A stretch of 64,000 nucleotides of DNA, taken from assembly GCA_016188575.1 (NCBI GenBank), contig JACPHN010000268.1, forward strand, positions 916 to 64,915, given 5' to 3'. Positions 3,658-47,135 of this stretch are shown here, piece by piece. Below the pieces are notes generated by a model, which saw only the letters and a program-made list of their open reading frames with translations, was not told where the DNA came from and did no database searches. Made by a program: the position numbers and the translations under genes. Origin of the DNA: Candidatus Schekmanbacteria bacterium. Lineage in GTDB: Bacteria; CSSED10-310; JACPHN01. Each line of letters starts with the position of its first letter. The first letter of the stretch is position 1.

Positions 3658-5107
3658 GAACGCCCCGGTCGGCCGCCGGCTCCGGCTGCGGTTGCCGGCT
3701 CACCGCCCGAGTCGCCGCAACCAGCGCGATGAGCAGGTAGGGGAACCAGCTCAGCACGAAGCCGCCTGCCAGGCCACACGCCAGAAAACCCCACAGCGAG
3801 GCGTGCAGCGCGAAGGCGAGCGGGGCGATCAGGTGCGCGTTTCGCCCGCCCCCCACGCCGCCCACACCGCCCACACCGCCCAGCCCGGCGCGCTCGCCGC
3901 CCGCGCGGCCCCGCCGCGCCAGGCGGCCCGTGCCGACCAGCGCCGCCGCCAGCATCCCGGCAAACGGCACGAACCCCGCCAGACCCGTCTCGGCAAGCGC
4001 CTGAACCAGCGTGTTGTGGCTGTGCAGCCAGCCGTTGGACGGCGCGTCCGCCGGCGCATACAGCGGCCAGCCAAGCATGGAGCAACCCAGCCCGACCCCG
4101 GTCAACGGCCGATCCGCGAACATCTCCAGCCCCACGCGAATCGTCCACAGCCGTTCCTGAACCGTCGTATCCGCCCGCAACCCGGAAAACCCCTCGTCGC
4201 GCGTCCACAGCCGGTCTGCGAACGCCAGGCAGACGATCCCCCCGGCAACCGCCAGGACCCACACGGAGAGCTTGCGCGAGCGCAGCACGCTCAGCCCGAT
4301 CACCACCGCCAGCGCCAGCAGCCCGCCGCGCGAAAACGTCACGAAGATCGCCGGCAGGTAGATCGCCGCGACGCCATACAGGGCCGCGCGCCGCGGCAAG
4401 CTGCCGTCGCGCGCCAGGTACAGCGCCAGCGGCAGGAGAATGACCAGACTGTAGGCGAGCTCGTTGGGGTTTTCGAAAATCCCGATCCAGCCGGCGCGGG
4501 ACCCCTCTACAAGCTGACCGGTCGCGTAGTGCTGCAAGGTGCCGAGGGCGGGAAACAAGCCCCCGACGACCATCACGGTCGCGATGCCGCGGAGGCGTCC
4601 GAGATCCGTGGCGACATTCAGCACGAGCAAGGACACGGCGGCCATCTTTGCCAGATCCGCGAGCTGCTCGGCGGCATACCCCGGCCACAGCGCGCCGGCG
4701 ACCGACAGCGCGGCGGCGGCGACGAAGCCGAGCAACAGGTAGCTTTCCGGCCACACCAGGCGGAACGCACGTTCCGCCACCACCAGCTCGACGGCCAGCA
4801 CGACGAGCGCCAGCAACGCCACCGCCTGCGCCGGCCGCACCGCTTCCAGCGCCGGGACCAGCAGCGCCGCATTGGAGTAGAGCAGGGCCAAAAAGAGCAG
4901 CACGAGCCAGTAGGACAGGCGCCCGCGACGGGCGCCGTGCCGCCGGTCGCTCCCCAGCGGCCCCTCCACCTCACCTCCCCGCGCTTGCGGGGGGCGGCCT
5001 CCAAGCTCTCTCTCTCCCCCCGCTTGCCGGGGAAGGAAGGCAGCGGGGTATGATCGCAGTGGTCGCGTGGCCGCGTCCTGCCGATATTTGACACCGCTTG
5101 CCGTCAT
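3650..5107 (-). CDS. O-antigen ligase / polymerase family protein (Wzy_C; exosortase-associated O-glycosylation ligase type)
   Basis: Multi-TM protein carrying the ligase-family motif (…WLHSHNTLVQALAETGLAG…) in a large periplasmic loop. ATG at 5107 forms an ATGA overlap with the wecB stop. The first ~60 codons are low-complexity and coincide with a GC-rich palindromic repeat, so the true start may be further downstream (~4930). A Gly-rich GGVGGVGGVGGG loop is encoded by a 9-bp tandem repeat. Confidence 0.7.
   Translation of the reverse strand: MTASGVKYRQDAATRPLRSYPAAFLPRQAGGERELGGRPPQARGGEVEGPLGSDRRHGARRGRLSYWLVLLFLALLYSNAALLVPALEAVRPAQAVALLALVVLAVELVVAERAFRLVWPESYLLLGFVAAAALSVAGALWPGYAAEQLADLAKMAAVSLLVLNVATDLGRLRGIATVMVVGGLFPALGTLQHYATGQLVEGSRAGWIGIFENPNELAYSLVILLPLALYLARDGSLPRRAALYGVAAIYLPAIFVTFSRGGLLALAVVIGLSVLRSRKLSVWVLAVAGGIVCLAFADRLWTRDEGFSGLRADTTVQERLWTIRVGLEMFADRPLTGVGLGCSMLGWPLYAPADAPSNGWLHSHNTLVQALAETGLAGFVPFAGMLAAALVGTGRLARRGRAGGERAGLGGVGGVGGVGGGRNAHLIAPLAFALHASLWGFLACGLAGGFVLSWFPYLLIALVAATRAVSRQPQPEPAADRGVHE
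4961..5048. repeat. GC-rich imperfect-palindromic dispersed repeat, copy A (two adjacent units in opposite orientation)
   Basis: 4961-4994 reads cccctccacctcacctccccgcgcttgcgggggg and 5011-5048 reads ctctccccccgcttgccggggaaggaaggcagcgggg. Both share the ccccccgc(N4-8)ggaggtgaggtgggg core with copies at 8786, 12426 and 22447. Confidence 0.6.
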
Positions 5108-6267
5108 GCCCGCACTCCCGGCTCCCGAGCGCGCACCTGTCTGCTGCGCACGCCGCGGTACAGCTCCCGGATCTCGGTGCGGTGCTCGTATAGCGCGCTC
5201 ACGATGCGTTCGGCGGCGTGGCCGTCCCACTTTTCGGGGGTCCGCCGGAGCTTCGGCGGGCCCGACAAGATGGCCCGGGCGCTTTCGAGAATGAGGCCGC
5301 CGTCGAAGCCGACCAGCTCGTTGGTGCCCAGGGTCACGGTGATGGGCCGTTCCGTGTTTTCGCGCAGCGTCAGACAGGGCACCCGCAGCATGGTGGATTC
5401 CTCCTGAACGCCGCCGGAATCGGTCATCACGAATCGGCAATCGCGGAGCAGTCGGATGAAGTCGACGTAGTTGAGCGGCGGGATCCTGCGCACGTGGTCG
5501 AGACTTGCGGTCAGCCCGAGACCGCCAAGCTGGGCCGCCGTGCGCGGATGCACCGGAAAGACGATGGGGACGCGTTTGCCGAGCTCTTCTATGATCGCCG
5601 CCAGGTGCGCAAGGCGGCGGGGATCGTCGACGTTCGCGGGGCGGTGCAGTGTGAGCATGGCGTAGTCGCCGTCCTCGAGCTCGAGCCGACTGTGCACGTC
5701 GGACGACGCGATGCTCGGCCACGACCGCCGGAGCGTGTCGGCAAGCACGTTGCCGGTAAAGAAGATCTTCTCGGCGGCGATCCCTTCCTGGCGCAGATTG
5801 GTGATGGCCTGGGGTTCCGTGACGAAGAGGTAATCGGCGATGGCGTCGGTCAGGACGCGGTTGATCTCCTCGGGCATCTCGCGGTCGAAGCTGCGCAGGC
5901 CCGCCTCGACGTGTGCCACCGGGATGCCGAGGCGCGTGGCCGTCAAGGCCGCCGCGAACGTCGAGGCCACGTCGCCGACCACCAGCACCAGGTCGGGGGG
6001 AACGGCCTCCAGATAGTCCTCCAGGCCCTCGAGCAGGCGCGCGGTCTGGTGGCCGGGTGAGCCGGAACCGACGCCGAGGTGGACATCGGGCTCGGGAATG
6101 TGCAGGCCGCGGAAAAAAGAGCTGGAGAGCGACTCGTCGTAGTGCTGGCCAGTGTGGACCAGACGGGGAGCGATGCCCCGATGGCTGGTCATGGCGTCCA
6201 TGAGCGGCGCGATCTTGACGAAGTTTGGCCGGCAACCGACGACACTGACGATGCTCAACGCGTCCAT
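5104..6267 (-). CDS. wecB: UDP-N-acetylglucosamine 2-epimerase (non-hydrolysing)
   Basis: 388-aa protein MDALSIVSVVGCRPNFVKIAPL…HTGQHYD…DSGGVQEE, the characteristic WecB/MnaA family signature. ATG at 6267 (cat 6265-6267); stop at 5104-5106. Confidence 0.85.
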   Translation of the reverse strand: MDALSIVSVVGCRPNFVKIAPLMDAMTSHRGIAPRLVHTGQHYDESLSSSFFRGLHIPEPDVHLGVGSGSPGHQTARLLEGLEDYLEAVPPDLVLVVGDVASTFAAALTATRLGIPVAHVEAGLRSFDREMPEEINRVLTDAIADYLFVTEPQAITNLRQEGIAAEKIFFTGNVLADTLRRSWPSIASSDVHSRLELEDGDYAMLTLHRPANVDDPRRLAHLAAIIEELGKRVPIVFPVHPRTAAQLGGLGLTASLDHVRRIPPLNYVDFIRLLRDCRFVMTDSGGVQEESTMLRVPCLTLRENTERPITVTLGTNELVGFDGGLILESARAILSGPPKLRRTPEKWDGHAAERIVSALYEHRTEIRELYRGVRSRQVRAREPGVRA

Positions 6268-7544
6268 AGCTCGGTCCTCCTGAGGACTGCGTGCGTCGTT
6301 TCGGCCAGGGGTCGACTCTCTGCCAGACCGGCCGAATCGGTGGACGAGGTCATTGTGAGTGACTGCGTCGCAGCGCCCCCCGCCGCAAGCGGGGGGAGGC
6401 AAGGCAGGGGGTCCTGGCGAACGGGCGCTTGATCCAGGTCCGCCGGTCGCTCGGCGTGGCGGTCTGAGCAGGCGCGCAGAACCTCGAAAATGCCGTTGAT
6501 CTGAGCGCTCATGACCGCGCCCGAGAACTGCCCGTCCGCGCCCTTGCAGCAGTTTTCCCACAGGTGTTTGCGCGGCACGGTAAGCTGCGGGAACGCGGCG
6601 TGGCGGTGCCGGCAGGTGGTACAGGCGTGGGCATAGCCGGCCGCCGCGACGGCCTCGACGTCCGCGGCGCTGAACCGGCCGGCGGGGTAGGCGAAGCAGT
6701 CGACGCCGTGGCCGAGCTCGGCGGCGAGCTCCTGGCGCGACTCCGCAAGCTCCCGCCGCACGCGCGCGCGTGATTCGAGCGGCAGGATGATGTGGGTTTG
6801 CGTGTGGGAACCAATGGTGACCCCGGCGCGGTCGAGCGCACGGATGGCCGGCCAGTCCAGGATGCGCAGCTCGTCGAGGTCGCTCTCGTCGACGCCGACT
6901 GCGGACTCCAGCGCCGCGACGAGCTCGCCGAGAGCGGCGCAGGTGACCCGGGCGCAGAGCAGCTCGGTGAGGGTCGCCGCCGACCCGGATCCCGCGGGCA
7001 CCGCCCCAAGGAGCACCTCCGGCGACACGCCGAGTTCCCGCAGCGCCGCAAGCGACAAACAACCGCCTTTCCCCCACCGCGCCGCCGCGGTGTGGAGCAG
7101 CCGGTAGAGGCGGTCGTGCAGCGGAATGCCCGCGCCGCCCGCCAGGTCGGTCACGACGAACACGGTCGCCGGGACGCCGAGCGCGCGGAGGACCGGCAAG
7201 CCGTGCTCGGCCACGTCGCGGTAGCCGTCGTCGAAGGTGACGGCGGCGACGGGGGCGGCGCCTGCCTGATCCGCCCCCTGGTGCGCCGCCGCGAGCTCGT
7301 CCAGCGCGACGAAGCGATGGGAACGCCCCACCCAGCGCAGTTGCCGGGCGAGCATGTCCTGGGTGATCTGCATCGCCGGCATGGCGTGCGCTTCGGACTG
7401 CATCCGCTGCACGACGCGATGGTAGCACAGCACCAGTGGTCGATAGCGCCGCCGCGACACCGCGCCGATTGCCTCCGCGAGGCCCAACGCGTGCAGGCTG
7501 CGCGCCACTGTGCTCTTTATCGTGCGCCGCCAGGGTGCGCTCAT
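6255..7544 (-). CDS. Polysaccharide deacetylase (NodB-homology domain) with a ~150-aa Cys-rich C-terminal extension
   Basis: N-terminal …LVLCYHRVV… and …VTFDDGYRD… motifs are typical of PF01522 deacetylases (PgaB/IcaB-like). ATG at 7544 gives an ATGA overlap with the upstream FemAB-like gene stop. 429 aa. Confidence 0.7.
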   Translation of the reverse strand: MSAPWRRTIKSTVARSLHALGLAEAIGAVSRRRYRPLVLCYHRVVQRMQSEAHAMPAMQITQDMLARQLRWVGRSHRFVALDELAAAHQGADQAGAAPVAAVTFDDGYRDVAEHGLPVLRALGVPATVFVVTDLAGGAGIPLHDRLYRLLHTAAARWGKGGCLSLAALRELGVSPEVLLGAVPAGSGSAATLTELLCARVTCAALGELVAALESAVGVDESDLDELRILDWPAIRALDRAGVTIGSHTQTHIILPLESRARVRRELAESRQELAAELGHGVDCFAYPAGRFSAADVEAVAAAGYAHACTTCRHRHAAFPQLTVPRKHLWENCCKGADGQFSGAVMSAQINGIFEVLRACSDRHAERPADLDQAPVRQDPLPCLPPLAAGGAATQSLTMTSSTDSAGLAESRPLAETTHAVLRRTELWTR

Positions 7545-8755
7545 GGCCGTCCCTCGCGCTGCCGGCGCGCGAGCGCCCGGTCAAGCAGCTTCCGCGCCAT
7601 CCTGCGCGCCCGCCGCTTGAGCTCGCCGGCGCTCCGGCGCAGGCGCCCGCTCATGCCGGGCGGGTAAAGGCGCAAGCATTCGAGCGTCCGCCGCTCTCCC
7701 GCCCACAGATACTTGTAGGGCTCCTCACCGTGAAGAAAGTCGAATTCGGTCACGCCCTCTTCCATGCAGTGCCGGATGACCAGCCCCGCCATGACCAGGC
7801 CGACCCCGCGATCCGCGAGCGCGGGGTCAAAACCGGCCTGGTAATAGAGAAACCTGTGCCCAAAGCGGAACCCGTACACGGCGGCCGCGGGACGCCCGTC
7901 CAGACGCATGAGGAACAGGCGCAACCAGCCCCGTTCCAGCGCCTCCCGGCTCAGCTCCTCATGGAAGTCGCGCAGACTTCGGGTGTGAAAGGCATCGGAG
8001 CCGCCGCGCTCTTGCCAGCGTTTGAAGTGCAGCACCAGCAGATCCTCGAGCGCCTCACGGCGTTCCTGGTCGGTGCCCGCCAGCGCGAAGGAAACCGCGT
8101 AACGCTGCTGCAGCTTGCGGCAGCGGGCGCGGAAGTTCTGCCGATGCCGCGGCCCGAGCGAGGCGATGTAGTCTTCGAACGTCGGCTGCTCGAGGCGGAC
8201 AATGGGGCAGACGTTGGTGGTTGTCGCCGACTGGTGCCATCCCCGCCCGACCAGCCGGGCGGCCAGCCGGCGCGCGAACGATTCTCCGGCAGCGAGCTGC
8301 CCGAGCACCAGCGCTCGGCGCCGCACGGTCACGTGTTTCGCGAGCGCCTCCAGCACCTCCTCTTCGCACCCGTCGCGGACGATGATGTCGAGGTAGTCCG
8401 AGCCGACGCTCCCGGTGCCCAGCAGCTCGAGCGGCGAGAAGGGCCAGCGCTTTCTCATCAGCGGCGCCAGGGCCACCAGCTCCTCGCGACGCCACAGCGC
8501 GATCAGGCGCATGCAGCGCCCCTCGGACAGGTGCTGCCACCACGCCGACATCCACTCCCAGGTCAGGAAGAGCTCCCGGCTCTTGCTATTCTCAAGCAGA
8601 TCGTGCCAGTCGTGGTACAGCCGCAAGAAGGCCAGGCGGCTGCCGATACGTTCCGCCACCAGCCCGCCGGGGGGACTGCTCCGATTCGCCACGAAGGCGG
8701 CTCTGACCTGTTCCGCTGCGAGGATCGGCGGGATATCTACGTTGGCAACGCTCAT
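7541..8755 (-). CDS. FemAB/CelD-like GNAT acyltransferase (PEP-CTERM-locus FemAB-related type)
   Basis: 404-aa protein from MSVANVDIPPILAAEQ…. It is a paralogue of the gene at 10173-11375 (conserved …FLMRLDGRPAAAVYGFRFGHRFLYYQAGFDP… block). Start at 8755 (cat 8753-8755), preceded by GGAAGGGAG 5 nt upstream. The longer stop-to-stop ORF (to 8977) runs through an intergenic palindromic repeat and is rejected. Confidence 0.65.
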   Translation of the reverse strand: MSVANVDIPPILAAEQVRAAFVANRSSPPGGLVAERIGSRLAFLRLYHDWHDLLENSKSRELFLTWEWMSAWWQHLSEGRCMRLIALWRREELVALAPLMRKRWPFSPLELLGTGSVGSDYLDIIVRDGCEEEVLEALAKHVTVRRRALVLGQLAAGESFARRLAARLVGRGWHQSATTTNVCPIVRLEQPTFEDYIASLGPRHRQNFRARCRKLQQRYAVSFALAGTDQERREALEDLLVLHFKRWQERGGSDAFHTRSLRDFHEELSREALERGWLRLFLMRLDGRPAAAVYGFRFGHRFLYYQAGFDPALADRGVGLVMAGLVIRHCMEEGVTEFDFLHGEEPYKYLWAGERRTLECLRLYPPGMSGRLRRSAGELKRRARRMARKLLDRALARRQREGRP

Positions 8756-8785
8756 GGCGACTCCCTTCCTGAATCCACTACTTTC

Positions 8786-8819
8786 CACGCCTCCCCCCGC
8801 TTGTGGAGGTGAGGTGGGG
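8786..8819. repeat. GC-rich imperfect-palindromic dispersed repeat, copy B (intergenic)
   Basis: cacgcctccccccgcttgtggaggtgaggtgggg. A C-rich arm pairs with a G-rich arm (ggaggtgaggtgggg is the reverse complement of ccccacctcacctcc). Confidence 0.6.
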
Positions 8820-8973
8820 TGGAATGCTCCCCTCTGTGGATCCTGAGTAAGGTGGCCCCGCCGAGCTCTTCGAGCAACGGTCCCCCCAGCCTCCGGGAGA
8901 GGGGCCTCGGAAGTGTAGTAGAGGAACCGGCTTCCGAGCTCATTGGGGCCACCTATGTAAACACGTGCGGTGC

Positions 8974-10176
8974 TCATGCCGGCTTCGCCTCCGGAGCGAG
9001 CAGCCGGAGACCGCGCGTGCGATGCGTGTCGTCCGCATGCCAGCGGTGCAAACCGAGCATGCGAATCTGTTTGGCGATGTGCTCGATGACCTCCAGCGTC
9101 ACGTACTGGTGAATGGGGATCTCGAGGAGGTGCTCGCGAAGAAAGCGGACGGCGGGCGAGATCTCCGTGAGCGACGGGTCACCGACGTTCCAGAACTGGA
9201 CGGTCTGGATGCCCGCTGCCTCCAGCGCCGCCGCGGCCGCCGCCTTGTCGGGAACGAGCAGGGGAAAGAAGAGCGGACAGACGCCGTCGTCGATGGTGCT
9301 GCGCAGCAGCGGCGCCTGGCCATCCAGAAGCTGCACCAGGAGCTGAAAGTTCGCTCGCCGCCGCGGCCGGATCTCGGCGTAGGGCAGGCGCTCGAGGATG
9401 CGCCGCGACAGGTCGGAAAGCGCGATGTCGGCGACCGAGCGATCGAAGCCCGCATCGCCGACGGGAATCCGCGGCCCCCACGTCGCGCTCAGCAGGCGGC
9501 CGGTAGCGCGTTTCGCCGCCGCCAGCACCTGGCCCGCGCCGCCGGCCCGGCTGCGAAACCACTCCACCAGCAGCTCGCTCGCCCTGCCCGCGGTCGACAG
9601 CCGGTCACAAGGGCGCAACGGCATGGCCGCGAGCCCCGGAATCGGCCAGCGGTTCTGTGCCAGGATCGCGCCGTTGGGAACCGGTAGCGTCTTGTACAGG
9701 CAGAACACCGAGAAGTCCCCAAACGTGCCGAGCGGCTGTCCCTCCAGCTCGCTCAAGAGCGCCAGAGCACAATCCTCCACCAGCACGAGGTCGCGCTCCC
9801 GGCAAATCTCCGCGAGCTCCCGGATCGGCTGCGGCCAGCCGATGTAGTGGATCGATAGCAGCGCCCGGGCACCCGACCGCGCGAGCCGCGAGACCTGGTC
9901 CAGATCCGGCTGCAGGTGCCGGTCCACGCGGTAGAACCGCAAGCGGGCACCTGCCGCCAGAATCGCCTTGATCTCATTACCGTGGTGGTAATCCGGAACG
10001 AGAACGGTCTCGTCCGGCCGCAACATGAGTTGCGAAAACAGATGGTAGAGCGCGTTGCGCGCGCGGTACCGGTAGATGACGTCCGGACTGCCCAGCGGGA
10101 AGGGCCTGGGAGCAGCGGACGGCGGCGACAGGAAGAGGCGCGGATCGAGACCTGGCCCCGCGGATGCGTACATCAT
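8974..10176 (-). CDS. DegT/DnrJ/EryC1/StrS-family PLP-dependent sugar aminotransferase
   Basis: 400-aa protein from MMYASAGPGL… with the fold-type I aminotransferase architecture shared by WbpE/ArnB-type enzymes. Start at the double ATG 10176/10173, abutting the stop of the upstream FemAB-like gene (10173). The upstream 50 codons of the ORF are low-complexity. Confidence 0.7.
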   Translation of the reverse strand: MMYASAGPGLDPRLFLSPPSAAPRPFPLGSPDVIYRYRARNALYHLFSQLMLRPDETVLVPDYHHGNEIKAILAAGARLRFYRVDRHLQPDLDQVSRLARSGARALLSIHYIGWPQPIRELAEICRERDLVLVEDCALALLSELEGQPLGTFGDFSVFCLYKTLPVPNGAILAQNRWPIPGLAAMPLRPCDRLSTAGRASELLVEWFRSRAGGAGQVLAAAKRATGRLLSATWGPRIPVGDAGFDRSVADIALSDLSRRILERLPYAEIRPRRRANFQLLVQLLDGQAPLLRSTIDDGVCPLFFPLLVPDKAAAAAALEAAGIQTVQFWNVGDPSLTEISPAVRFLREHLLEIPIHQYVTLEVIEHIAKQIRMLGLHRWHADDTHRTRGLRLLAPEAKPA

Positions 10177-11375
10177 GCCTGGGTCCTCCTCATTGCATGG
10201 TTCAAGAGCGCACGTGCCTCGCTCATCGGGCGATAAAGCCGACTCGCGCGCAGCCGCGGCAGGATGTGGAACTTGAGCTGGCGGACCGCGCGGCTGCGCC
10301 AGCCGTGCGGGAAGAGAAACAGCCATTCATGGCGGCGCGTCGTCGCCGTCCACTCCCGCTTCCACGGCTCGTCGTCGCCGAGAAAGTCGAGCTCGCTCAA
10401 CCCGCGCTCGTAGCAGTGCTTGAGCACGTGAAAAACCAGAAGGTTGGTCGGCGAATACTGCCGGTACAGTGGGTCGAAGCCCGTCTTGACCAGGAAAAAA
10501 CGACCGCCGTACTCGAGCGCGAAGGCGAAGGCGATGCGCCGCCCGCCGGCCGTGAGAAAACAGAGGCGGAGCCAGCCGTGGCGCGCCGCCTCGGGGACGA
10601 GCTGGGCATAGAACTGCCGGCAGCTCTCAGTCGACGCGATCGCGGTGCCCGCGTCCTGCTTCCACGCGGCGCCCTCGATCTGGATGCCTTCCGCGAGCGC
10701 GCTTTCAACTTCGGAACCGGAGGTGACGATCTCCATGTCCAGGCTGGCGCTGCGCATGAGGCGGCCCAGGCGGTTGCGCAGATTGGCGCGGTGTTTGGCG
10801 GAGAGCGACCGCAGGTAGCCGTCGAAGGTCCCTTCCAGCTCCAGGTACGGAGCGTCGGCGGCGTGCCATAGCTCGCCGGCGACCGCGTCCGCGCGGGCGA
10901 GGGCCGGAAGTCTGCGCAGCGTCGGCGAGTCCGCGGGGAGCTGGCAGAGGGTCACGTAGTCCAGCTCGTCGAACATCTCGGTCACCTGCTGCCAGAGGGC
11001 CAGGTAGACGCGGTCGCTGCGCTCGCCGGCGAGATCGAAGCGAGAGGTGTGGGCATTGGCGAGAAACTCGAGCGTGACGGTCCTGAGCCCGTAGACGCGG
11101 CGCACCGACAGCATCATGGGGGCGACGGCGACAAGCTCGGTGCCGTCGCGGAAAACGAAAACCCGCAGCGCGTGTCCCGAGCCGAAGCTGTCCCACCAGC
11201 AACTGACCCAGGCGTGAGTATTGAAGGGATGATCGCCAGGTGAGCGGCGGGTCAGCGCGGACCATTCGGGTGCGAGCGCCGCCAGCCCGGCGCTGCTCTG
11301 CACCACCTCGACCGCGAGCCGGCCGCGCCGCGGCGCCAGCCGTTCAGTCGCTATCTCAAGCACGATCGCGCTCAT
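10173..11375 (-). CDS. FemAB/CelD-like GNAT acyltransferase, second paralogue
   Basis: 400-aa protein MSAIVLEIATERL… containing …GWLRLCFLTAGGRRIAFAFALEYGGRFFLVKTGFDP… (Acetyltransf_6-like). ATG at 11375 makes an ATGA overlap with the GT2 stop. Confidence 0.7.
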   Translation of the reverse strand: MSAIVLEIATERLAPRRGRLAVEVVQSSAGLAALAPEWSALTRRSPGDHPFNTHAWVSCWWDSFGSGHALRVFVFRDGTELVAVAPMMLSVRRVYGLRTVTLEFLANAHTSRFDLAGERSDRVYLALWQQVTEMFDELDYVTLCQLPADSPTLRRLPALARADAVAGELWHAADAPYLELEGTFDGYLRSLSAKHRANLRNRLGRLMRSASLDMEIVTSGSEVESALAEGIQIEGAAWKQDAGTAIASTESCRQFYAQLVPEAARHGWLRLCFLTAGGRRIAFAFALEYGGRFFLVKTGFDPLYRQYSPTNLLVFHVLKHCYERGLSELDFLGDDEPWKREWTATTRRHEWLFLFPHGWRSRAVRQLKFHILPRLRASRLYRPMSEARALLNHAMRRTQA

Positions 11376-12799
11376 AGTCGGAGCTCCCGAGGTTTCGCAT
11401 GGAGTAATCGCGGCCGCGCGGGGCGCGGCCGCCGCGGATCGCCGGCAGCCGGCGCCACCGCCACCGCCGCGCCTGACGCCTGCCAGAGATCCTGAGGATG
11501 GGTCACGTAGCGGTAGAGGCCGAGCACGGCGGCCCAGTTCAGCATGACGAAGTGGTAGGGAACGGACAGCAGCCGATCAAGCAGCCGCTGGGGTCCGCCG
11601 CCGCCGCCGGACAGGTGCGCGCGGCGATCGCCGCGCAAGCGATAGGCCCCGACCACCGCGAGCAGGTAGGCAGCGGTCTGCGCCACCAGGAATGCGGTAT
11701 AGAGCTCGCCCCGCAGCATCCAGCTCGACGCGTACAGCGCCGGCAGGAGAAAGGCGACGACGAGGCGCCCTACCTTGTGCGAGGCGAACTGCAGGAAGAT
11801 CGGATCACGCCACGGCATCAGCAGCTCGGGCATGCGCGCCAGGAGCTGGTAGTTTCCGGCGAGCGTGCGCACCTTGCGGCGCAGCTCCGCGCTCGACGGC
11901 TGCTCGCGGTCGTAGGCGCGCGCGGCCGGGTCGAGGACGGCGCGCTTGCCGCGCAGAACGGCCCCCATGGGAATCGCGACGTCGTCGAGAATGGTGTCGG
12001 CGGGCAGCGGTGTGTACAGGTCCCGGCGCACGGCATGCAGCGCGCCGGTGGCGCCCGGCAGCGAGTGAATGTCGCTCTCCAGTGCGCGCAGCCACCGGTC
12101 GTAGCGCCAGTACAGGCCGATGCCGTCGCCGGCCACGTTGCCGTTTTCGTCCAGCACGATGACCTCACCGCTCACCGCGCCCACCTCGGGGTCGTGGAAG
12201 TTGGCGATGAGCTCGCGCACGGCGGCGCTTTCCAGCCGCTGCCGGGCATCGGCAAAGACGATGACGTCGCCGCGAGCCGCCGCCACGCCGCGATTCAACG
12301 CCCCCGCCTTGCCCTCGTGGCGCGGCGACCGCACTACAGTGAGGCGCGGTGCCGGCCACGCGCGGCGCGGCGACCGCAGCGGCGACCACGGGTGGTCGCC
12401 TAATCCCAGAAACGCCCGGTGCGGCCCCCTACCCCTCCCCCCGCGCGCGGGGGCAGGTGTGGTGGGGCGTCTTCGCGATGCGTCCCAGGCGCTCGTGAGC
12501 CGCCGGTGGGCGCTCGCCCAACGTTCCACCACGCGATCCGTGCCGTCGCTCGGACCATCGAGCGCGATGACGATCTCCAGCTTGCTCGGCGGGTAAACCT
12601 GGCGCAGGCAGTCCTCGAGCTTGTCCACGATCGCCTCGCGCTCGTTGTAGGCGGCGATGACGATGCTCACCGACAGGCGACAGGGTTGCTTGTCCACCGG
12701 CGCCAGGCCATACCGCCGCCGGGCGAGCAAGTAGAGCGGATAGCCCACATACACGTAGGCGATGATCGCCAAACTGCTCCAAAAAACGACCTGCGCCAC
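11372..12799 (-). CDS. Family-2 glycosyltransferase (membrane GT2) carrying an in-frame ~51-codon insertion derived from a palindromic repeat
   Basis: The protein has an N-terminal TM helix, then SVSIVIAAYNE…LEIVIALDGPSDGT…[insertion]…GKAGALNRGV…DVIVFADAR… (DxD-type GT2 core), then C-terminal TM helices. GTG start at 12799, with GGAGG 8 nt upstream. Confidence 0.75.
   Translation of the reverse strand: MAQVVFWSSLAIIAYVYVGYPLYLLARRRYGLAPVDKQPCRLSVSIVIAAYNEREAIVDKLEDCLRQVYPPSKLEIVIALDGPSDGTDRVVERWASAHRRLTSAWDASRRRPTTPAPARGGRGRGPHRAFLGLGDHPWSPLRSPRRAWPAPRLTVVRSPRHEGKAGALNRGVAAARGDVIVFADARQRLESAAVRELIANFHDPEVGAVSGEVIVLDENGNVAGDGIGLYWRYDRWLRALESDIHSLPGATGALHAVRRDLYTPLPADTILDDVAIPMGAVLRGKRAVLDPAARAYDREQPSSAELRRKVRTLAGNYQLLARMPELLMPWRDPIFLQFASHKVGRLVVAFLLPALYASSWMLRGELYTAFLVAQTAAYLLAVVGAYRLRGDRRAHLSGGGGGPQRLLDRLLSVPYHFVMLNWAAVLGLYRYVTHPQDLWQASGAAVAVAPAAGDPRRPRPARPRLLHAKPRELRL
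12346..12499. repeat. In-frame repeat-derived insertion inside the GT2 gene (contains palindromic repeat copy C at 12426-12467 and a second palindrome ggcgaccacccgtggtcgcc)
   Basis: Codons 101-152 of the GT2 (TSAWDASRRRPTTPAPARGGRGRGPHRAFLGLGDHPWSPLRSPRRAWPAPRL) lie between the DGxxDGT and GKAxALN motifs, which are normally ~25 residues apart. The DNA carries cccctacccctccccccgcgcgcgggggcaggtgtggtgggg plus the perfect palindrome ggcgaccac-cc-gtggtcgcc. Confidence 0.6.
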
Positions 12800-12802
12800 G
12801 GC

Positions 12803-14152
12803 CTACAGCCTCCTGAGGTTCGACGCCTCGATGCCGCGCGTCGCGTTGCGGGTATCGAACACCAGCGGCGCCTGTCGGGTAATCTCCTCGTAGTCGAAGC
12901 CCGAATGGTCCGTCAGGATCAGCGCGAGGTGGCAGAGCTCCAGGAGCTGCGGCGTTGGCCGTTTGGACTCCAGAAGCTCGTCGCCGATGGTGATGGAGTC
13001 CACAAACGGGTCGCTATAGGAGACCGTCGCCCCGCGCTCCCTGAGCAGCTTGATGACCTCGAGAGCCGGCGATTCCCGGGTGTCGCAAACGTCCTTCTTG
13101 TAGGCCACGCCGAGCACGTGGATCCAGGTGCGGCTCAGGGGTCTGCCCGCCTCGCTCAAGATCTCCATCACCCGCATCACCACGTAACGGGGCATGCCGC
13201 GATTGATCTTGTCGGCAAGGTGAATGAGCTCCGGCACAAACCCATCGATCGTGGCCTTCCACTGCAAGTAGATGGGATCGACGGGGATGCAGTGCCCGCC
13301 GAGACCGGGACCCGGGAAAAACGGCATGAACCCGAACGGCTTGGTCGCCGCCGCGTCGATCACCTCCCACACGTCGATGTCCATGTGCTTGCACATCTGC
13401 GCCAGCTCGTTGACCAGCGCGATGTTTACGGCGCGGAAGGTGTTCTCCAGCAGCTTGACCATTTCGGCCACGCGCGTGTTGGAGACTTCCATCACGCCGC
13501 CCACGACCTGGCTGTACAGCGACGCCGCCAACCGCCGGCACCGGGGCGTCACCCCGGCGACGATCTTCGCGATGTTCTCGGTCTTGAACCTGGCATTGCC
13601 CGGGTCGACCCGTTCCGGCGAGTATGCCAGGAAGAAGTCCTCTCCGACCTTCAATCCGTGCGCCTGCAAGCGCGGCAGGACGATGTCCTCGGTGCTTCCC
13701 GGGTAGGTCGTGCTCTCCAGGATCACGAGCTGTCCGGGGCGCAGATGCGCCGCGACCTCTTCCGCCGCAGACAGCACGAAGGTCAGGTCCGGGTCGCGGC
13801 TCTTGCGCAACGGCGTGGGCACGCAGATGATGAGCACGTCCATATCCGGTAAGGCCGAAAAGTCGGTCGTCGCGGCAAACTTGCCTTCGTGGAGCGCCTG
13901 CATCACCCGGCGGCTGTGCACGTCGGTGATCTCGGAAACGCCATTCACCAGCCCGTCGACGCGCTCGGGGTTGATGTCGAAGCCGGTGGCGCGGAACCCG
14001 GCATCGGCACAAGCCATCGCCAGGGGTAGACCGACGTAGCCGAGGCCGAGCACACCGACGCGGGCGGTGCGCGTCTGCAAGCGGCCGGCGAGGGTTTCAA
14101 ACGAGTTGGTGACCTGAGTAGTTGGAACCTGCAGGACAGCGGTAGTGCTCAC
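12803..14152 (-). CDS. UDP-N-acetyl-D-glucosamine / -mannosamine 6-dehydrogenase (nucleotide-sugar dehydrogenase family, WbpA/WecC-like)
   Basis: 449-aa protein with an N-terminal Rossmann motif (VGVLGLGYVGLPLAMA), a catalytic-Cys region (…GGHCIPVDP…) and a UDPG_MGDP_dh C-terminal domain. GTG start at 14152 with AGGAGA 7 nt upstream. Confidence 0.85.
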   Translation of the reverse strand: MSTTAVLQVPTTQVTNSFETLAGRLQTRTARVGVLGLGYVGLPLAMACADAGFRATGFDINPERVDGLVNGVSEITDVHSRRVMQALHEGKFAATTDFSALPDMDVLIICVPTPLRKSRDPDLTFVLSAAEEVAAHLRPGQLVILESTTYPGSTEDIVLPRLQAHGLKVGEDFFLAYSPERVDPGNARFKTENIAKIVAGVTPRCRRLAASLYSQVVGGVMEVSNTRVAEMVKLLENTFRAVNIALVNELAQMCKHMDIDVWEVIDAAATKPFGFMPFFPGPGLGGHCIPVDPIYLQWKATIDGFVPELIHLADKINRGMPRYVVMRVMEILSEAGRPLSRTWIHVLGVAYKKDVCDTRESPALEVIKLLRERGATVSYSDPFVDSITIGDELLESKRPTPQLLELCHLALILTDHSGFDYEEITRQAPLVFDTRNATRGIEASNLRRL

Positions 14153-22175: not shown

Positions 22176-22233
22176 AAGAACCGTTTACTCTTTGTTAGAC
22201 CGATGTTGTTTTGCTGGCGTCCGCGGAAGAGCT

Positions 22234-22250
22234 TGCAAGGTCTATGCCAC
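22234..22250 (-). promoter_or_regulatory. Sigma-54 (RpoN) promoter for the EPS operon
   Basis: The minus strand reads G-TGGCAT-AGACC-TTGCA-A. This matches the TGGCAC-N5-TTGCA consensus with correct GG/GC spacing and a single mismatch at a weakly conserved position. Predicted TSS is ~48 nt upstream of the Wza-like ATG. Confidence 0.55.
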
Positions 22251-22297
22251 CGCGAGAGATGCGGCTTGGACGGCCATTTGCCGCGGTTCTGGGGCCG

Positions 22298-22334
22298 TGC
22301 AATGGACCCCCTTCCATGGAAGGGTCGTTCCGCA
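22298..22334. promoter_or_regulatory. Two adjacent inverted repeats ~60-110 bp upstream of the sigma-54 promoter; candidate enhancer (UAS) for the bEBP
   Basis: Perfect 16-bp palindrome CCCTTCCATGGAAGGG (22298-22313), followed by the imperfect GTTCCGCAAGTGGAATG (22318-22334). Both have the TTCC-N4-6-GGAA form. Confidence 0.35.
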
Positions 22335-22446
22335 AGTGGAATGTCGGTTCAACTCTCAGTACAGGTCTCTAGGGACTTGTCCCGGCACAGCATCGGCAGA
22401 CACCTGACAGGGCAGTTGCCAGGGGCACGATCTCCGTCTCCTTCTG

Positions 22447-22525
22447 CCCTCCGTTCCCCCCGCTGGCGAAGGGAGGTGAGGTGGGGGGAGGGCAGGGGTG
22501 GGGGGAGAGCTGGAGGGTGGGGGAG
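22447..22525. repeat. GC-rich imperfect-palindromic dispersed repeat, copy D, followed by a G-rich run
   Basis: ccctccgttccccccgctggcgaagggaggtgaggtgggggg then gagggcaggggtggggggagagctggagggtggggg. Intergenic between the Wza-like gene and the LuxR regulator. Confidence 0.6.
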
Positions 22526-22539
22526 AAACCGCAGCCCGC

Positions 22540-23247
22540 CTATTGTTCCCGCGCCGCTGCGGTCAGGCCGTGCTCAATGGCCTGAAGAACCGCCTGCGCG
22601 GTGCTCTGGACGCCCATCTTGGTGCGGATTCGCGTTTTGTGGGCGTCGACGGTGCTGGTGGTGATGCCCAGTCGGGTGCCGATTTCCCGACTCTTCATGC
22701 CCTGGATGAGCAAGGTCAGAACCTCGCGCTCGCGCTCGGAGAGCTCGGTGGGGGCCGGCACCTGCCGCTGCAGAACGCACTTCAGCATGGCGTCCGAGAT
22801 ACTTGGACTGAGGTGAACGAGTCCACTGGCGACCTCCGCGAGCGCCTGGGAAAGGTCACCGGCAGGGTCCGAGGTGAGCACGACACCTCTGGCGCCGGCG
22901 CGCAGCCCATCCACGAGCTTCTGCTGCAGGGCGGCTTCGGTGCTGACCAGGATGACCTGGGTGGCAGGAGAGTGGCGGCGGATCTGCCTGGCCGTGGCAA
23001 TGCTGTCGGCAGTCGCGTCGAGGTCGATGATGGCGACGTCCGGGTGCGCGGCCGCGGCAAGAGCGATGGCGTTCCGCGCGCCGTCGGCCTCCCCGATGAT
23101 CGTGGCGAAGCTGGTATCCAGTGCTGCGCAAATGGCGGTTCGCATGGCCGAGTGAGCGCTCACCACGGCGACGCGGAGCACGGCTCTACCGCCAGGTCGC
23201 GGCTTGACCGCGAGCACTGGACGGCCGAGCGGAGGCCGAAATCTCAT
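22540..23247 (-). CDS. LuxR/NarL-family response regulator with a degenerate (probably non-phosphorylatable) receiver domain
   Basis: 235-aa protein from MRFRPPLGRP…. C-terminal HTH_LuxR (…LSEREREVLTLLIQGMKSREIGTRLGITTSTVDAHKTRIRTKMGV…). The N-terminal REC-like domain has the acidic pair replaced (VAVVSAHS instead of DD) and the conserved Lys position reads VVLTSD. The upstream 121 codons of the ORF are low-complexity and rejected. Confidence 0.65.
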   Translation of the reverse strand: MRFRPPLGRPVLAVKPRPGGRAVLRVAVVSAHSAMRTAICAALDTSFATIIGEADGARNAIALAAAAHPDVAIIDLDATADSIATARQIRRHSPATQVILVSTEAALQQKLVDGLRAGARGVVLTSDPAGDLSQALAEVASGLVHLSPSISDAMLKCVLQRQVPAPTELSEREREVLTLLIQGMKSREIGTRLGITTSTVDAHKTRIRTKMGVQSTAQAVLQAIEHGLTAAAREQ

Positions 23248-30804: not shown

Positions 30805-33144
30805 TTACACGCGGCCTTCGAGTTTGGGGCGAGACGCTTGCAGATCCTGTGCGGCCCGCTCCGCCATGCGCAGCAGCACTCTGGATCGCAAGAATTCGAG
30901 AATGTCGCCGGTGATCCGCTCCTGGTCTCCGCGCCGGGCCGCGATCGTGGTGGCCGCGGCGAATCCCGCGGGGACCTCCACCACCGCCACCTGGCCCTCG
31001 ACATCCCAAACACGGGCGACGCCCGACATCTTCCCGGAAACCGCCAGCCGGTCGTCGCCCACAATATTGATGTCGACGACATATTCGCGAATCTCCAGCG
31101 CCAGCAGAACGGCGCAGCCCATCGCCTTGGCGCGAGCCACGAGGCGCGCCGGGTCGAGCTCGGCGATTCCTCCCTCGATCGGCTCTCGCGCGATGAGCTC
31201 GGAAAAACGCTCGGCCACCGCGCCATCGCCCAGCCCATCGGCTTCGAACGGAGCGAAGAATGTCATTTCCGGGGGAAGCGCGGCGCGTTCGGGCGCGACG
31301 CTGAGCCCAAACACCAACCCGGCGTCCCTGGTGCACCCGCGGCGTTCGGCCTGGAGCTCGACATAGCGGTCTCGCCCCGCTCGCAGGAGCGACAGATCCA
31401 GAAGCTCTGCAACATCCGCCGGAAGGCGCAGGCTCACCGCCGCCAACACGCCGGCGTCGTCGTCCGCGAGCAGCGCCGAAGTCGCCGCCACGTGGAGCGG
31501 CGCCGAGCCCCCCTGGCCCGCTGTCGTCCCACTGTCTTCGGAGCCGCGACGGCCGGTATCTGCCAGCGCCAGCCACAGCGCGAGAACCATCGCGCCGACA
31601 ACCACCGCCGCGGCGCTCGTGAGACCTCGCCGGGTGCGCCAAAACGCGCCGGACGGCGCCGCGAGCGCGGAGACGGCTCGGTCCTCCGGCGGCGTGACCG
31701 TAACCGGCGCAGCAACAGGTGCGGCCGCCGGCGCAGCAGCGACCACGGGGCGGCGGCGCTGCGCGAGCCACAAGGCGCGCTGGTGCTGGGAGGGGCGCGC
31801 CAGCATGTCCTGGATCGCCCTGAGGCGATCGGAAACTTCCAGCAGCGAAACCGCGCGCGCGTCAGGATCCTCCGCCAGGAGCTCGTCCAGAAGCGGCTGC
31901 AGGCTCGCGATCAGAAACCCATCGAGCTCGTAGTGCTCCAGGGGCGGGGCTGGGCGATTGGCGCGCTTTTCAAGTCCCGTGGCGCTCGGCTCCAGGAGCG
32001 GGTGCTCACCTGTGATCATCTGCTGCAACAGGATCCCGAAGGCATAGATGTCCGTTGCCGGCGACGGCGGCAGGCCGCGAAACTGTTCGGGAGCCCTGTA
32101 GAGGGGGCTGCCGACCCACTCTTCCGCGGCCGCGTTTTCCTGTCCGTGCATTCGCAGCGTCAGCCCAAAGTCCGCGATCTTGGCCTGCAAATCCTCGGCG
32201 ACAAAGACGTTCCCCGGTTTGAGGTCGCCGTGGACACAACCGTGGCCGTGAAGATAGGCGAGCGCCTCCGCGATCTGGCGCCCGACAGGAAGTGCCTCCT
32301 GCCAGGAAAGCCGCCCGCGATCTTCCAATAGCGCGGCCAGTGTCCGTCCCGAGCTCTGCTCCAGAACCAGGCAAGGGCTGCCGTCTCCGTCGACGAACGC
32401 ATCCAGAGGCGCGATCGCATTCACATGGTGCAGGCCGATCAGTGCTTTCCAGTCATCCGTGATCCGCACCGCCGCGCTCTTGTCTCCCAGCAGGAACCGC
32501 TTCAGGCGCTTGACCGCGACGCGCCGCTCTGCGCGCTCGTCGCGGCAGGAAAAGACGCCCGCCGCCGCGCTTTCACCGAGCTGTTCCAGGACACGATATC
32601 GGCCGCCCAGAAGCGTTCCGGTCGCGCCGGGTAGCCGCGGCGGTCGGACGGGGACCTCCTTCGCTTCGCCTCCCGCCAAAGCCGACGGGATCGGTCCCCC
32701 CTCCGCGTCTCCCCTCGCAGGCGCGCGATGCATACTGTCTTGCTCGCTCGGATGTTGCGGCGCAATGGCGTCACTATCGTCATCCCGGCGAAAGCTGGCA
32801 GCCATGCTCCTGCTGCCATCGGATACAGGGACCGCGGCTTTCGCCGGGATGACGGAATCCTGTGGATCACCCGTCGGGGGCGGGGGAAGCTGGGTTGGAG
32901 GGGCTTCACGTCGCGCTTCCAGCGGCGCGACGGAGGGTGCCGGAGAGGATTCGCCCGCTTCCGCCCCCACCTCAGGCATCTCTGGCTCCGGCTCCTCGCG
33001 CGGCGCCAGCCCCATGATCTTCACGGGGCCTCCGCACCGCGGGCACCGCATACGGGCGGGATCCACCGTGCGGCCACTCCGCAAGCGCAGCCGTTTACCG
33101 CAGCTCTGACACCGAAACCCGGACTCGTCCGTCGCGCTCACCAC
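30805..33144 (-). CDS. Hanks-type Ser/Thr protein kinase with N-terminal zinc ribbon, central TM helix and large C-terminal extracytoplasmic domain
   Basis: 779-aa protein with an N-terminal C-x2-C…C-x2-C (CQSCGKRL…RCPRCGGP). Kinase subdomains VAVKRL, HRD-like HGDLKPGNVFV, DFG, SPLYRAPE. TM helix …AAAVVVGAMVLALWLALA…. GTG start at 33144 with GGAG 7 nt upstream. Confidence 0.85.
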   Translation of the reverse strand: MVSATDESGFRCQSCGKRLRLRSGRTVDPARMRCPRCGGPVKIMGLAPREEPEPEMPEVGAEAGESSPAPSVAPLEARREAPPTQLPPPPTGDPQDSVIPAKAAVPVSDGSRSMAASFRRDDDSDAIAPQHPSEQDSMHRAPARGDAEGGPIPSALAGGEAKEVPVRPPRLPGATGTLLGGRYRVLEQLGESAAAGVFSCRDERAERRVAVKRLKRFLLGDKSAAVRITDDWKALIGLHHVNAIAPLDAFVDGDGSPCLVLEQSSGRTLAALLEDRGRLSWQEALPVGRQIAEALAYLHGHGCVHGDLKPGNVFVAEDLQAKIADFGLTLRMHGQENAAAEEWVGSPLYRAPEQFRGLPPSPATDIYAFGILLQQMITGEHPLLEPSATGLEKRANRPAPPLEHYELDGFLIASLQPLLDELLAEDPDARAVSLLEVSDRLRAIQDMLARPSQHQRALWLAQRRRPVVAAAPAAAPVAAPVTVTPPEDRAVSALAAPSGAFWRTRRGLTSAAAVVVGAMVLALWLALADTGRRGSEDSGTTAGQGGSAPLHVAATSALLADDDAGVLAAVSLRLPADVAELLDLSLLRAGRDRYVELQAERRGCTRDAGLVFGLSVAPERAALPPEMTFFAPFEADGLGDGAVAERFSELIAREPIEGGIAELDPARLVARAKAMGCAVLLALEIREYVVDINIVGDDRLAVSGKMSGVARVWDVEGQVAVVEVPAGFAAATTIAARRGDQERITGDILEFLRSRVLLRMAERAAQDLQASRPKLEGRV

Positions 33145-44868: not shown

Positions 44869-47135
44869 CCGCTTCCCCTGACTCCACCGCCACTTCGCCT
44901 GCAAGCTGCGCGGAAAGCGCATCACGAACACCCCCCACCTCTCCTTCCCCCGCCAGCGGCGGGAGGGACGGAGCGGGGCTTTCCACTTCCGATGCCGGCT
45001 TGTACCTGATGCTTCTCAGCATCCACGGACTGATCCGCGGCCATGACCTGGAGCTCGGCCGCGATGCGGACACCGGCGGGCAAACCAAATACGTCGTCGA
45101 GCTGACCCGGGCGCTCGCTGCGCATCCCCGCATCTGGCGCGTAGATCTGCTGACGCGGCTCATTGACGACCCGCGGGTCGACGACGACTATTCGAGCGAG
45201 CAAGAACCCGTAGCGGAAAATGCCTTCATCACACGCATCCCCTGTGGCCCGCGCCGCTATCTCCGCAAGGAAACCCTGTGGACCTATCTTGACGGCTTTG
45301 CCGACAACGCCCTGCTCCACATCCGCCGCGTGGGCAGACTGCCGGATGTGATCCACAGCCACTATGCCGACGCCGGCTACGTCGGAGCTCGGCTCGCAGG
45401 TCTCCTCGGCGTGCCGCTGGTTCACACCGGGCACTCGCTCGGAAGAGAGAAAAAGAGACGCCTGCTCGTGCAGGGTATGGATGCGGAGGAGATCGAAAAG
45501 ACGTACAACATGTCGCAACGTATCGAGGCCGAGGAGCTCGCCATGGACAATGCTGCCATGGTGATCGCCAGCACGACGCAAGAAGTCGAGAAGCAATACA
45601 GCGTATACGACAACTATCAGCCGCAAAGCATGGTGGTGATTCCGCCAGGTGTTGCCTTGGACCGCTTCTATCCCCCGCGCCGTGGCTGGTTCGCCACTCC
45701 GGATCCTCTGGAGCTCGGGCGCTTCTTGCGCGAGCCGCGCAGGCCCATGATCCTGGCGCTCGCTCGGCCCGACGAACGCAAGAACATCGCTACGTTGCTA
45801 CACGCCTACGGCCAGCACCCCCGCCTGCAGCGCGCCGCGAATCTGGTGCTGATCGCCGGCATCCGCGACGACATCAGCGCCATGGAGAGGGGACCGCGCG
45901 CCGTGCTCAACGAGATCCTCTTGTTGATCGACCGCTACGACCTCTATGGCCGCGTGGCATGCCCCAAGCACCATCATGCCGATGATGTGCCGCTCCTGTA
46001 CCGCCTGGCAGCCAAGCGCGGCGGCATCTTCGTCAATCCCGCGCTCACCGAGCCTTTCGGCCTGACCCTGATTGAGGCCGCGGCAAGCGGGCTTCCCATC
46101 GTAGCCACGGAGGACGGGGGCCCGCGCGACATCATCGCGCACTGCCGAAACGGCGTGCTGATCGATCCCCTGGATCACGCGCGCCTGGGCGACGTGCTCT
46201 ATGCGGCCATCAGCAATCGCCGCCAATGGCGCCGCTGGGCCAAGAATGGCGTCGCCGGCGCCCACAGGCGTTTCTCGTGGAGCAGCCACGTCAGCCGATA
46301 CCTGTCCGAGGTGGAAAAGTTGATGAAGAAATGGCGACGCAAGCGCCCGGCGGCGGCGCCCAGGAGCAAGTTGCCAACCCTGACGAGGATCCTGATCACG
46401 GATATCGACAACACGCTGATCGGCGACCGCGCAGCGCTACAGACGCTGCTCGAGAGGATGCGTAGGCACGGCGAAAAACTCGGTTTCGGTGTCGCTACCG
46501 GGCGACGCCTCGAAAGTGTCGCCCGCGTCCTCAAGGAATGGGACGTGCCGACTCCGGACGTGCTGATTACCTCGGTGGGCACCGAGATTCACTACGGCAA
46601 GCGCCTGGAGCCGGATCTGGGCTATCAGGACCACCTGGAATACCGTTGGGCTCCGCAGGCGCTCCCGGAAGTGCTGAATGAGCTCCCGGGCTTGCGCTTG
46701 CAGGCCGCCGTGGAACAGCGACGGTTCAAGGTCAGCTTTCTTCTGGATCCCGGGAAGGCACCCAGCGTGCGGGTGATCAAGAAGCAGTTGCGGCGGCATG
46801 GCATACATGCCACCGTGGTATTGTCTAACGGCATTTATCTTGACGTCATTCCGGTGCGCGCCTCCAAGGGTAAGGCGATACGATATATAGCCAATAAGTG
46901 GGGGATTCCAATAGATAGTATTCTTGTTGCAGGTGATTCCGGAAATGATGAAGAAATGCTGACAGGGAATACCCTCGGCGTCGTCGTTGGCAACCATTGC
47001 GAGGAGCTGAAGGTCCTGCGCGGCCAAGAGCGCGTTTACTTCGCCCGCGGTCAATATGCGCTGGGTATTCTGGAAGGAGTAGAGTTTTATAACTTCTTTG
47101 ATGACATTAACAGTATCCATGAAAGTGTCGGATAG
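44865..47135 (+). CDS. sps: Sucrose-phosphate synthase with fused C-terminal sucrose-phosphatase-like (HAD) domain
   Basis: 756-aa protein. Its GT-B domain (…[29 protein letters not shown]…, …[30 protein letters not shown]…) is followed by …[13 protein letters not shown]… (HAD DxDxT) and …[12 protein letters not shown]…. Confidence 0.85.

Follow-up and report, generated by a model that had tools for sequence, protein, structure and literature searches.

The gene at 11372–12799, on the minus strand of the 64,000-nucleotide stretch of DNA that was analyzed (the window), encodes a GT2 membrane glycosyltransferase of the PgaC/cellulose-synthase-like type. Its 475-amino-acid open reading frame was identified by exact look-up as NCBI MBI2572028.1. 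This record, from a 68,268-bp contig of a 'Candidatus Schekmanbacteria bacterium' metagenome-assembled genome (MAG), is annotated as an intact GT2 and carries no pseudogene label. The Pfam profile PF00535 (Glycos_transf_2) matches the protein with an E value of 9.5e-21 and 74.9 bits against a cut-off of 23.3, and 2334 homologues were found. Alignment with 26 of the best homologues showed that all 67 invariant columns are kept, including D81, D85, G163-K164, D184, D272-D273, and R311. The predicted model resembles membrane GT2 synthases such as PcManGT, the hyaluronan synthases, and BcsA. Both the profile score, which is above the curated threshold, and the conserved catalytic framework and fold place the protein in the GT2 family.

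The GT2 gene lies within a tightly packed polysaccharide operon that is otherwise intact. The neighboring genes encode a Wzx-like flippase, a polysaccharide deacetylase, two FemAB-type GNATs, a DegT aminotransferase, a UDP-sugar dehydrogenase, GlmS, a priming sugar transferase, and a Wzc-like kinase. The nearest homologues in the databases are distant, the best being 57% identical for the GT2 and 63% for GlmS. Exact protein look-ups of the neighboring dehydrogenase and GlmS returned no gene on record. A search for an alternative allele through the GNAT neighbor returned only the same Logan contig that is described below, and a BLAST search of the region against a plasmid collection gave no match.

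An in-frame insertion of 156 nt (52 codons) interrupts this gene at 12341–12496 on the minus strand, between the DGxxDGT and GKAxALN motifs, and its translation is TSAWDASRRRPTTPAPARGGRGRGPHRAFLGLGDHPWSPLRSPRRAWPAPRL (TSAWDAS...WPAPRL). The PF00535 match is accordingly made of two stretches with the insert between them. The 52-residue segment is a gap in 26 out of 26 aligned homologues, which are 46–57% identical to the query, and no homologous segment was found at this site. In the homologues, the distance from DGxxDxT to GKA is 20–29 amino acids with a mode of 21 (102/120 homologues with parsable motifs). It is 75 amino acids in the query and 23 once the 52 residues are taken out. The closest solved structure, the Pyrobaculum mannosyltransferase 6yv7, gives the same result. 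In a phmmer search against the PDB, query residues 15–101 aligned with residues 12–102 of 6yv7 and query residues 151–377 aligned with residues 102–327. The two blocks adjoin at residue 102, so that the solved protein runs on without a break at the position of the insert.

The 5-nt sequence GTGAG occurs at both junctions on the plus strand, at 12340–12344 on the low-coordinate side, where the coding strand reads CTCAC (codons Leu-Thr), and at 12496–12500 on the high-coordinate side, as read directly from the sequence. The protein reads ...RRL|T... at one junction and ...PRL|T... at the other. Because GTGAG is present on both sides, the boundary of the insert can slide by 5 nt. A previous sequence-only reading of this DNA had placed an extra segment of about 51 codons at 12346–12499. 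The location was right, and the exact extent is that given above, within the 5-nt slide. Its statements that removal of the segment restores the usual spacing of the motifs (put at about 25 residues) and that the insertion is a stop-free multiple of three were borne out by these results.

Because the sequence comes from a metagenome-assembled genome and the insert holds a dispersed repeat, one could suspect that repeat-containing reads were wrongly joined into the GT2 gene. However, the Logan assembly of run SRR12113422 is identical to window positions 8501–12991 (4491 nt) save for a single mismatch at 8512. This position is far from the insert, which is identical in this independent assembly of the same sample; therefore, a fault of one assembler is unlikely. 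In addition, the repeat unit of about 70 nt is shorter than typical reads, and the flanks rejoin in frame. An assembly artefact is thus highly improbable. At the level of sequence comparison, and within the scope of one contig, one MAG, and one sample, the GT2 insertion is confirmed as real, lineage-specific, and frame-preserving.

The composition of the insert differs from that of its surroundings. Its GC content is 78%, compared with 67% for the genome. GC at the first, second, and third codon positions is.71,.83, and.81 in the insert versus.75,.48, and.86 in the rest of the gene, so that the codon-position pattern of the remaining gene is absent from the insert. This difference is due in part to the Arg/Pro/Gly composition of the encoded peptide. 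Two palindromes are found in the insert. The first, at 12381–12400, is a perfect palindrome with a 9-bp stem, GGCGACCAC-GG-GTGGTCGCC; it had been pointed out in the sequence-only reading and is unique in the window. The second is a long imperfect palindrome at 12422–12469, which is the top-ranked inverted repeat in the whole window. It forms the hairpin of a REP-like repeat unit at 12424–12492 on the plus strand, where it precedes the tail AGGTGTGGTGGGG and a 3' extension.

The insert also contains an 18-nt segment that copies adjacent gene sequence. The segment lies at 12361–12378 on the plus strand, encodes LRSPRR, and is identical at 17 of 18 positions to 12316–12333 on the same strand, which encodes the conserved VRSPRH just before GKAGALN. 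The copy and its source are 27 nt apart, which gives a repeat spacing of 45 nt. A direct repeat of 18 nt was reached in none of 300 dinucleotide shuffles, whose mean was 11.7. Tandem duplication was considered as a source of the insert and rejected, since Tandem Repeats Finder reported nothing and the repeat with 45-nt spacing covers just 18 nt. The remaining left-hand part of the insert has no counterpart. The repeat family explains no more than about 70 of the 156 nt, and for the other 83 nt (12341–12423), no second copy was found on either strand of the 64-kb window and none in the flanks of the gene, the exception being the 18-nt stretch. Terminal inverted repeats are absent, as the 30-nt ends, with one of them reverse-complemented, score 6.0 against a null of 6.6 ± 1.4. 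An intron or a known structured RNA was also considered and set aside, because the whole window gave no Rfam match at the gathering level; the best regional match (E = 0.14) was irrelevant.

The hairpin in the right-hand part of the insert belongs to a GC-rich, REP-like family with the consensus CCTCCCCCCGC-NNG-CGGGGGGAGGTGAGGTGGGG. Seven hairpin cores or palindromic centers, including that of the insert, are present in the 64 kb, and the family tail motif has five matches in the window where 0.25 are expected. Five of the copies are intergenic, and the two exceptions are the GT2 insert and the tail of another open reading frame. The intergenic copies at 4964–4996 (minus strand) and 5010–5045 (plus strand) are the left and right members of a REPIN-like inverted doublet. 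The copy at 6377–6412 (plus strand) lies inside the 3' tail of the polysaccharide-deacetylase open reading frame (6255–7544, minus strand). Another intergenic copy, at 8789–8821 (plus strand), lies between the DegT-like gene (stop at 8974) and a GNAT gene (start at 8755), and the copy at 22452–22490 (plus strand) lies in a region without codon periodicity (22180–22540). The copy closest to that of the insert is at 44908–44979 on the minus strand, upstream of a GT4-like gene whose coding signal begins after about 44960.

The local alignment of insert positions 12424–12492 with 44908–44979 scored 61, compared with 25.5 ± 3.3 for shuffles (z of about 10). A second alignment test of the repeat part of the insert scored 33 versus 11.6 ± 1.8. 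The similarity to the copy at 44908–44979 stops about 4 nt short of the right junction, and the similarity to most other copies is limited to a core of 35–40 nt. The same hairpin was found five times, as singlets and doublets, in 14 kb of an unrelated metagenome contig with 70% GC, so the family is not confined to this genome. The 22-nt 3' extension common to two copies had no match in a metagenome scan. A 20-mer from the unique part of the insert gave only a chance match, to a Thalassoglobus MAG, in a species-representative collection that does not contain the source MAG. A literature search by sequence strings returned nothing relevant.

REP and REPIN elements are repetitive extragenic palindromes that are mobilized by RAYT transposases and are extragenic by definition. 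The hairpin family resembles them in being short, imperfect, GC-rich, palindromic, multi-copy, and mostly intergenic, and in occurring as singlets and inverted doublets. In contrast, the copy in the GT2 insert is translated, and the family consensus has no Rfam match. No RAYT gene was seen in the window, where a tblastn search with an approximate RAYT query gave nothing better than E = 0.9, a weak negative.

These findings bear on the possibility that the segment arose long ago, by evolution of coding sequence, as a linker specific to this lineage, with the resemblance to the hairpins arising as a by-product of GC-rich low complexity. GC at the third codon position of the insert (0.81) is little below that of the gene (0.86), high values at the first two positions are expected from an Arg/Pro/Gly-rich peptide, and there are no close relatives that could show an empty site. 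However, the 70-nt similarity to an intergenic copy is far above that of shuffles, and two strong palindromes together with an 18-nt duplication of the flank are unexpected in evolved coding sequence. In addition, no homologue of the peptide was found among 1.84 billion protein representatives, and the segment is missing from all homologues examined. An evolved linker is therefore very unlikely.

The sequence-only reading took the insert to be a repeat element, holding a copy of the palindromic repeat and a second palindrome, and spoke of a MITE (miniature mobile element) or REP insertion. A copy of the family is indeed present but spans less than half of the insert (about 70 of 156 nt). The name MITE is not justified, because the repeat is partial, terminal inverted repeats are lacking, and only the 5-nt GTGAG flanks the insert; no second full-length copy was found within the 64-kb window. 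The search for a target-site duplication that had been proposed earlier yielded GTGAG at both junctions as the sole candidate, and this 5-nt match fits microhomology or chance equally well, with the placement of the boundary being free.

Protein databases were also searched for the insert. Six-frame translations had no match at E <= 10 against 5.8 billion protein clusters. The in-frame peptide, searched with HMMER against 1.84 billion representatives, gave three hits, all of them internally repetitive proteins. They were rejected as relatives, since their scores are summed over many chance stretches. The protein collection has indexing faults, as the GT2 itself is clustered under an unrelated representative of 57 amino acids. 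In those searches, the same peptide was not found in several unrelated genes. At the sequence level, an element of high copy number that frequently overlaps called open reading frames is thereby made less likely.

The main and serious rival, though a less likely one, is that the whole piece of about 151 nt is a discrete non-autonomous mobile element of the RPE or MITE type, with a 5-bp duplication of GTGAG and further copies in the genome, some of them intragenic. The size of the piece is like that of the RPEs of Rickettsia, which are about 150 bp (PMC10969869), the insert is hairpin-rich, and a second copy of the family lies inside an open reading frame tail at 6377–6412. The end of the similarity about 4 nt from the right junction and the flanking GTGAG would also fit a discrete element with a 5-bp target duplication. 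In contrast, the hairpin core is found seven times within the 64 kb but the left-hand 83 nt only once, and terminal inverted repeats are lacking. One stretch of the insert duplicates adjacent gene sequence, as a transposed element would not be expected to do, and no translation of the insert, in any frame, was found among the proteins of the collections.

The preferred explanation, which is held with about even confidence, is a one-off patchwork insertion of repeat-bearing DNA of a non-coding type that is tolerated as a surface loop. A single lineage-specific event would have placed 156 bp of GC-rich, non-coding-type DNA in the GT2 gene, at the turn that links helix alpha-2 to strand beta-3 in the GT-A domain. 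The right-hand part of about 70 nt would have been copied from the REP-like hairpin family, which is mostly intergenic on this contig. The left-hand 83 nt would consist of the 18-nt templated copy of neighboring gene sequence, the unrelated perfect hairpin, and unexplained filler, and the pieces may have been joined at microhomologies. The DNA would have arrived by illegitimate recombination, repair synthesis, or a REP-associated event using short homologies rather than by transposition of a discrete element. Templated or 'filler' insertions produced by illegitimate recombination or repair are a known class of mechanism with no curated family. The GT2 insert is like them in its patchwork make-up, its copy of a sequence 27 nt away, its piece of a dispersed repeat, and its junction microhomology. 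The insert would be read through as a 52-residue disordered loop rich in Arg, Pro, and Gly, because its length is divisible by three and DNA with 78% GC has few stops. The loop is probably a neutral passenger.

The in-frame and stop-free state of the insert is not remarkable in itself. Between 52% and 56% of 156-nt pieces of this DNA are stop-free in a given frame, and therefore about one-sixth of such insertions would preserve the open reading frame. Three of the six frames of the insert are open. The observed state is what selection would leave.

The effect on the protein was predicted with AlphaFold using the alignment of homologues. The mean pLDDT is 91 for residues 91–100 and 94 for residues 151–160, whereas it is about 44 for insert residues 121–140. 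The model has a helix at 87–110 and a strand at 152–158. Thus, the insert most likely forms a disordered loop that connects helix 2 with strand 3. In a Rossmann-type topology, the alpha-to-beta connections lie opposite the face that binds the nucleotide-sugar. From the topology of the fold, the loop would face away from the nucleotide-sugar site, and a basic loop on the cytosolic domain would be compatible with the positive-inside rule. With the loop in an alpha-to-beta connection that is predicted to lie away from this site, the GT2 enzyme is probably still active with an extra floppy loop. The proposal of the sequence-only reading that the insert adds a surface loop therefore agrees with the model, in which the segment is a loop with confident flanks; continued enzyme activity is a prediction from the sequence and this model.

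Inactivation of the enzyme, either by misfolding or by RNA or DNA structure that affects expression, would make the gene a young pseudogene that has not yet decayed. Such an outcome could be imagined for 52 disordered and highly basic residues within a compact catalytic domain, and the RNA is very GC-rich and structured, with a fold energy of –96 kcal/mol for 171 nt. However, this energy is no better than that of shuffles (z = –0.98), so that the insert was rejected as a special RNA structure, and no terminator-like or promoter-like site was found inside it. The invariant residues are all intact, the remaining 423 codons have no frameshift or stop, the flanks of the insert are confidently modeled in a normal fold, and the gene is tightly packed in an otherwise intact operon. 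Loss of function is thus unlikely, and nothing supports the silencing at the RNA level that the sequence-only reading had offered as an alternative.

Programmed translational bypassing, in which the ribosome would take off at the CTC codon of one junction and land on its CTC counterpart at the second, was also considered. This process is known from gene 60 of phage T4 and from the GC-rich 'byp' elements of yeast mitochondria. The identical CTC-AC at both junctions and the structured RNA between them are reminiscent of it. However, no bypass is needed, since the insert is in frame and stop-free; no stop codon follows the take-off codon, and 156 nt is about three times the known hop length. Bypassing is therefore barely conceivable here.

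The insertion can be compared with intragenic repeats of other bacteria. RPEs are palindromic elements of about 150 bp that lie inside conserved protein-coding genes, in frame and stop-free, with the host protein preserved (PMC10969869). The GT2 insert is similar, as it is palindromic DNA of about 150 bp that adds an in-frame, stop-free peptide segment to a conserved protein at a tolerated surface site. RPEs differ in having many full-length copies and a conserved peptide and in occurring in AT-rich intracellular bacteria, whereas in the GT2 insert, the repeated part amounts to only about 70 of 156 nt, the searches described above revealed neither another full-length copy nor a related peptide, and the genome has 67% GC. 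Intragenic ERIC sequences and the Coxiella elements QMITE1 and QMITE2 are small repeats that occasionally insert into open reading frames and thereby create in-frame fusions or extend the C-terminus (PMC10969869, PMC5896051). The family copy at 6377–6412, in the deacetylase tail, resembles the QMITE2 extension of enhC. ERIC and QMITE elements, however, have well-defined ends bearing inverted and direct repeats, and they exist in dozens of full-length copies; neither property was shown for the GT2 insert. In-frame insertion of a repeat into a biosynthetic enzyme had been called unusual, and this was overstated, as Rickettsia RPEs, ERIC, and Coxiella QMITEs are known in frame (PMC10969869, PMC5896051). 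Events of this kind have precedents in other bacteria. The GT2 insert acts like an RPE insertion, yet it fails those tests of a discrete-element family that could be run.

A more far-reaching possibility is that the hairpin family, or a longer form of about 150 nt, is a 'selfish' element comparable to the RPEs that enters protein-coding genes time and again in a free-living bacterium with high GC. This is unlikely on the present evidence. If it were true, the GT2 loop and the tail of the deacetylase open reading frame would be two instances on one contig, and the extreme GC content, which keeps most frames stop-free, would make such elements an overlooked source of new disordered protein segments. 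Apart from its implications, the insertion is a single event in one uncultivated genome and probably neutral. Provided that the enzyme is active, a conserved membrane glycosyltransferase would tolerate a disordered insertion of 52 residues at the alpha2-beta3 turn, and this turn would be a permissive site for engineering. The insertion also carries a warning for annotation, since open reading frames easily run through GC-rich intergenic repeats, which are then read as protein. It suggests that, in GC-rich genomes, REP-like DNA can be turned into protein, much as happens with RPEs in Rickettsia.

The hairpin family, a GC-rich REP-like repeat with one copy inside the in-frame insertion of the 475-aa GT2 glycosyltransferase, is also found outside this genome. 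The same hairpin occurs in five copies within 14 kb on Ga0207664_10000005, an unrelated metagenome contig of 485 kb and 70% GC, with sites at 479-542, 1727-1793 and 5334-5357 of that contig. There it takes the form CCTCCCCCCGC-NNG-CGGGGGGAGG with a GGTGGGGGG tail and is arranged as singlets and doublets, the latter being either direct or inverted. Other repeats are also present in the window. At 32778-32854 lies an inverted repeat whose 18-nt arms (CGTCATCCCGGCGAAAGC / GCTTTCGCCGGGATGACG) match perfectly across a spacer of 41 nt; it has no relation to the hairpin family. At 63626-64000, a 114-nt unit is repeated three times in tandem with a period of approximately 130 nt; two of the three copies are 96% identical, and the array runs past the window end.

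In the protein collection, the GT2 protein itself (MBI2572028.1) is placed in a cluster built at 90% identity. All the other members of that cluster, its representative included, are proteins of 56-57 aa from the Logan assembly collection (MNIAELKEILEQYP...) that have no relation to GT2, which explains why GT2 was never returned by its own homologue searches. The GC content of the contig is 67%. The named Schekmanbacteria bins of the taxonomy have 38 or 48 as part of their names, which we take to be GC content according to the usual naming habit. The nearest named relatives of GlmS, a protein of the polysaccharide operon of GT2, belong to Terriglobia (61-62% identity). The NCBI taxon label of the contig may be loose.

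The G-rich tail of the hairpin repeat, GGGAGGTGAGGTGG (window 4964-4979, minus strand, and other copies), contains the Shine-Dalgarno consensus GGAGGTGA, and a GTG at 4969, closely behind this consensus, is in phase with the long coding frame of the gene downstream (3650-49xx, minus strand). Based on these two features, the repeat copy at 4964-4979 (minus strand) may supply both the ribosome-binding site and the start of that gene.

Another copy of the family (6377-6412) lies in the tail of a polysaccharide-deacetylase ORF (6255-7544, minus strand), which continues for approximately 80 codons beyond the domain end and crosses the repeat. The last bases of this ORF overlap the beginning of the next gene, whose ATG at 6267 follows an AGGAGGA. 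Codon periodicity in the tail is weak (GC1/2/3 of.70/.60/.73 versus.76/.53/.89). The tail seems to be read-through of DNA that was once intergenic, and as such it would be a second instance of the hairpin repeat being translated.
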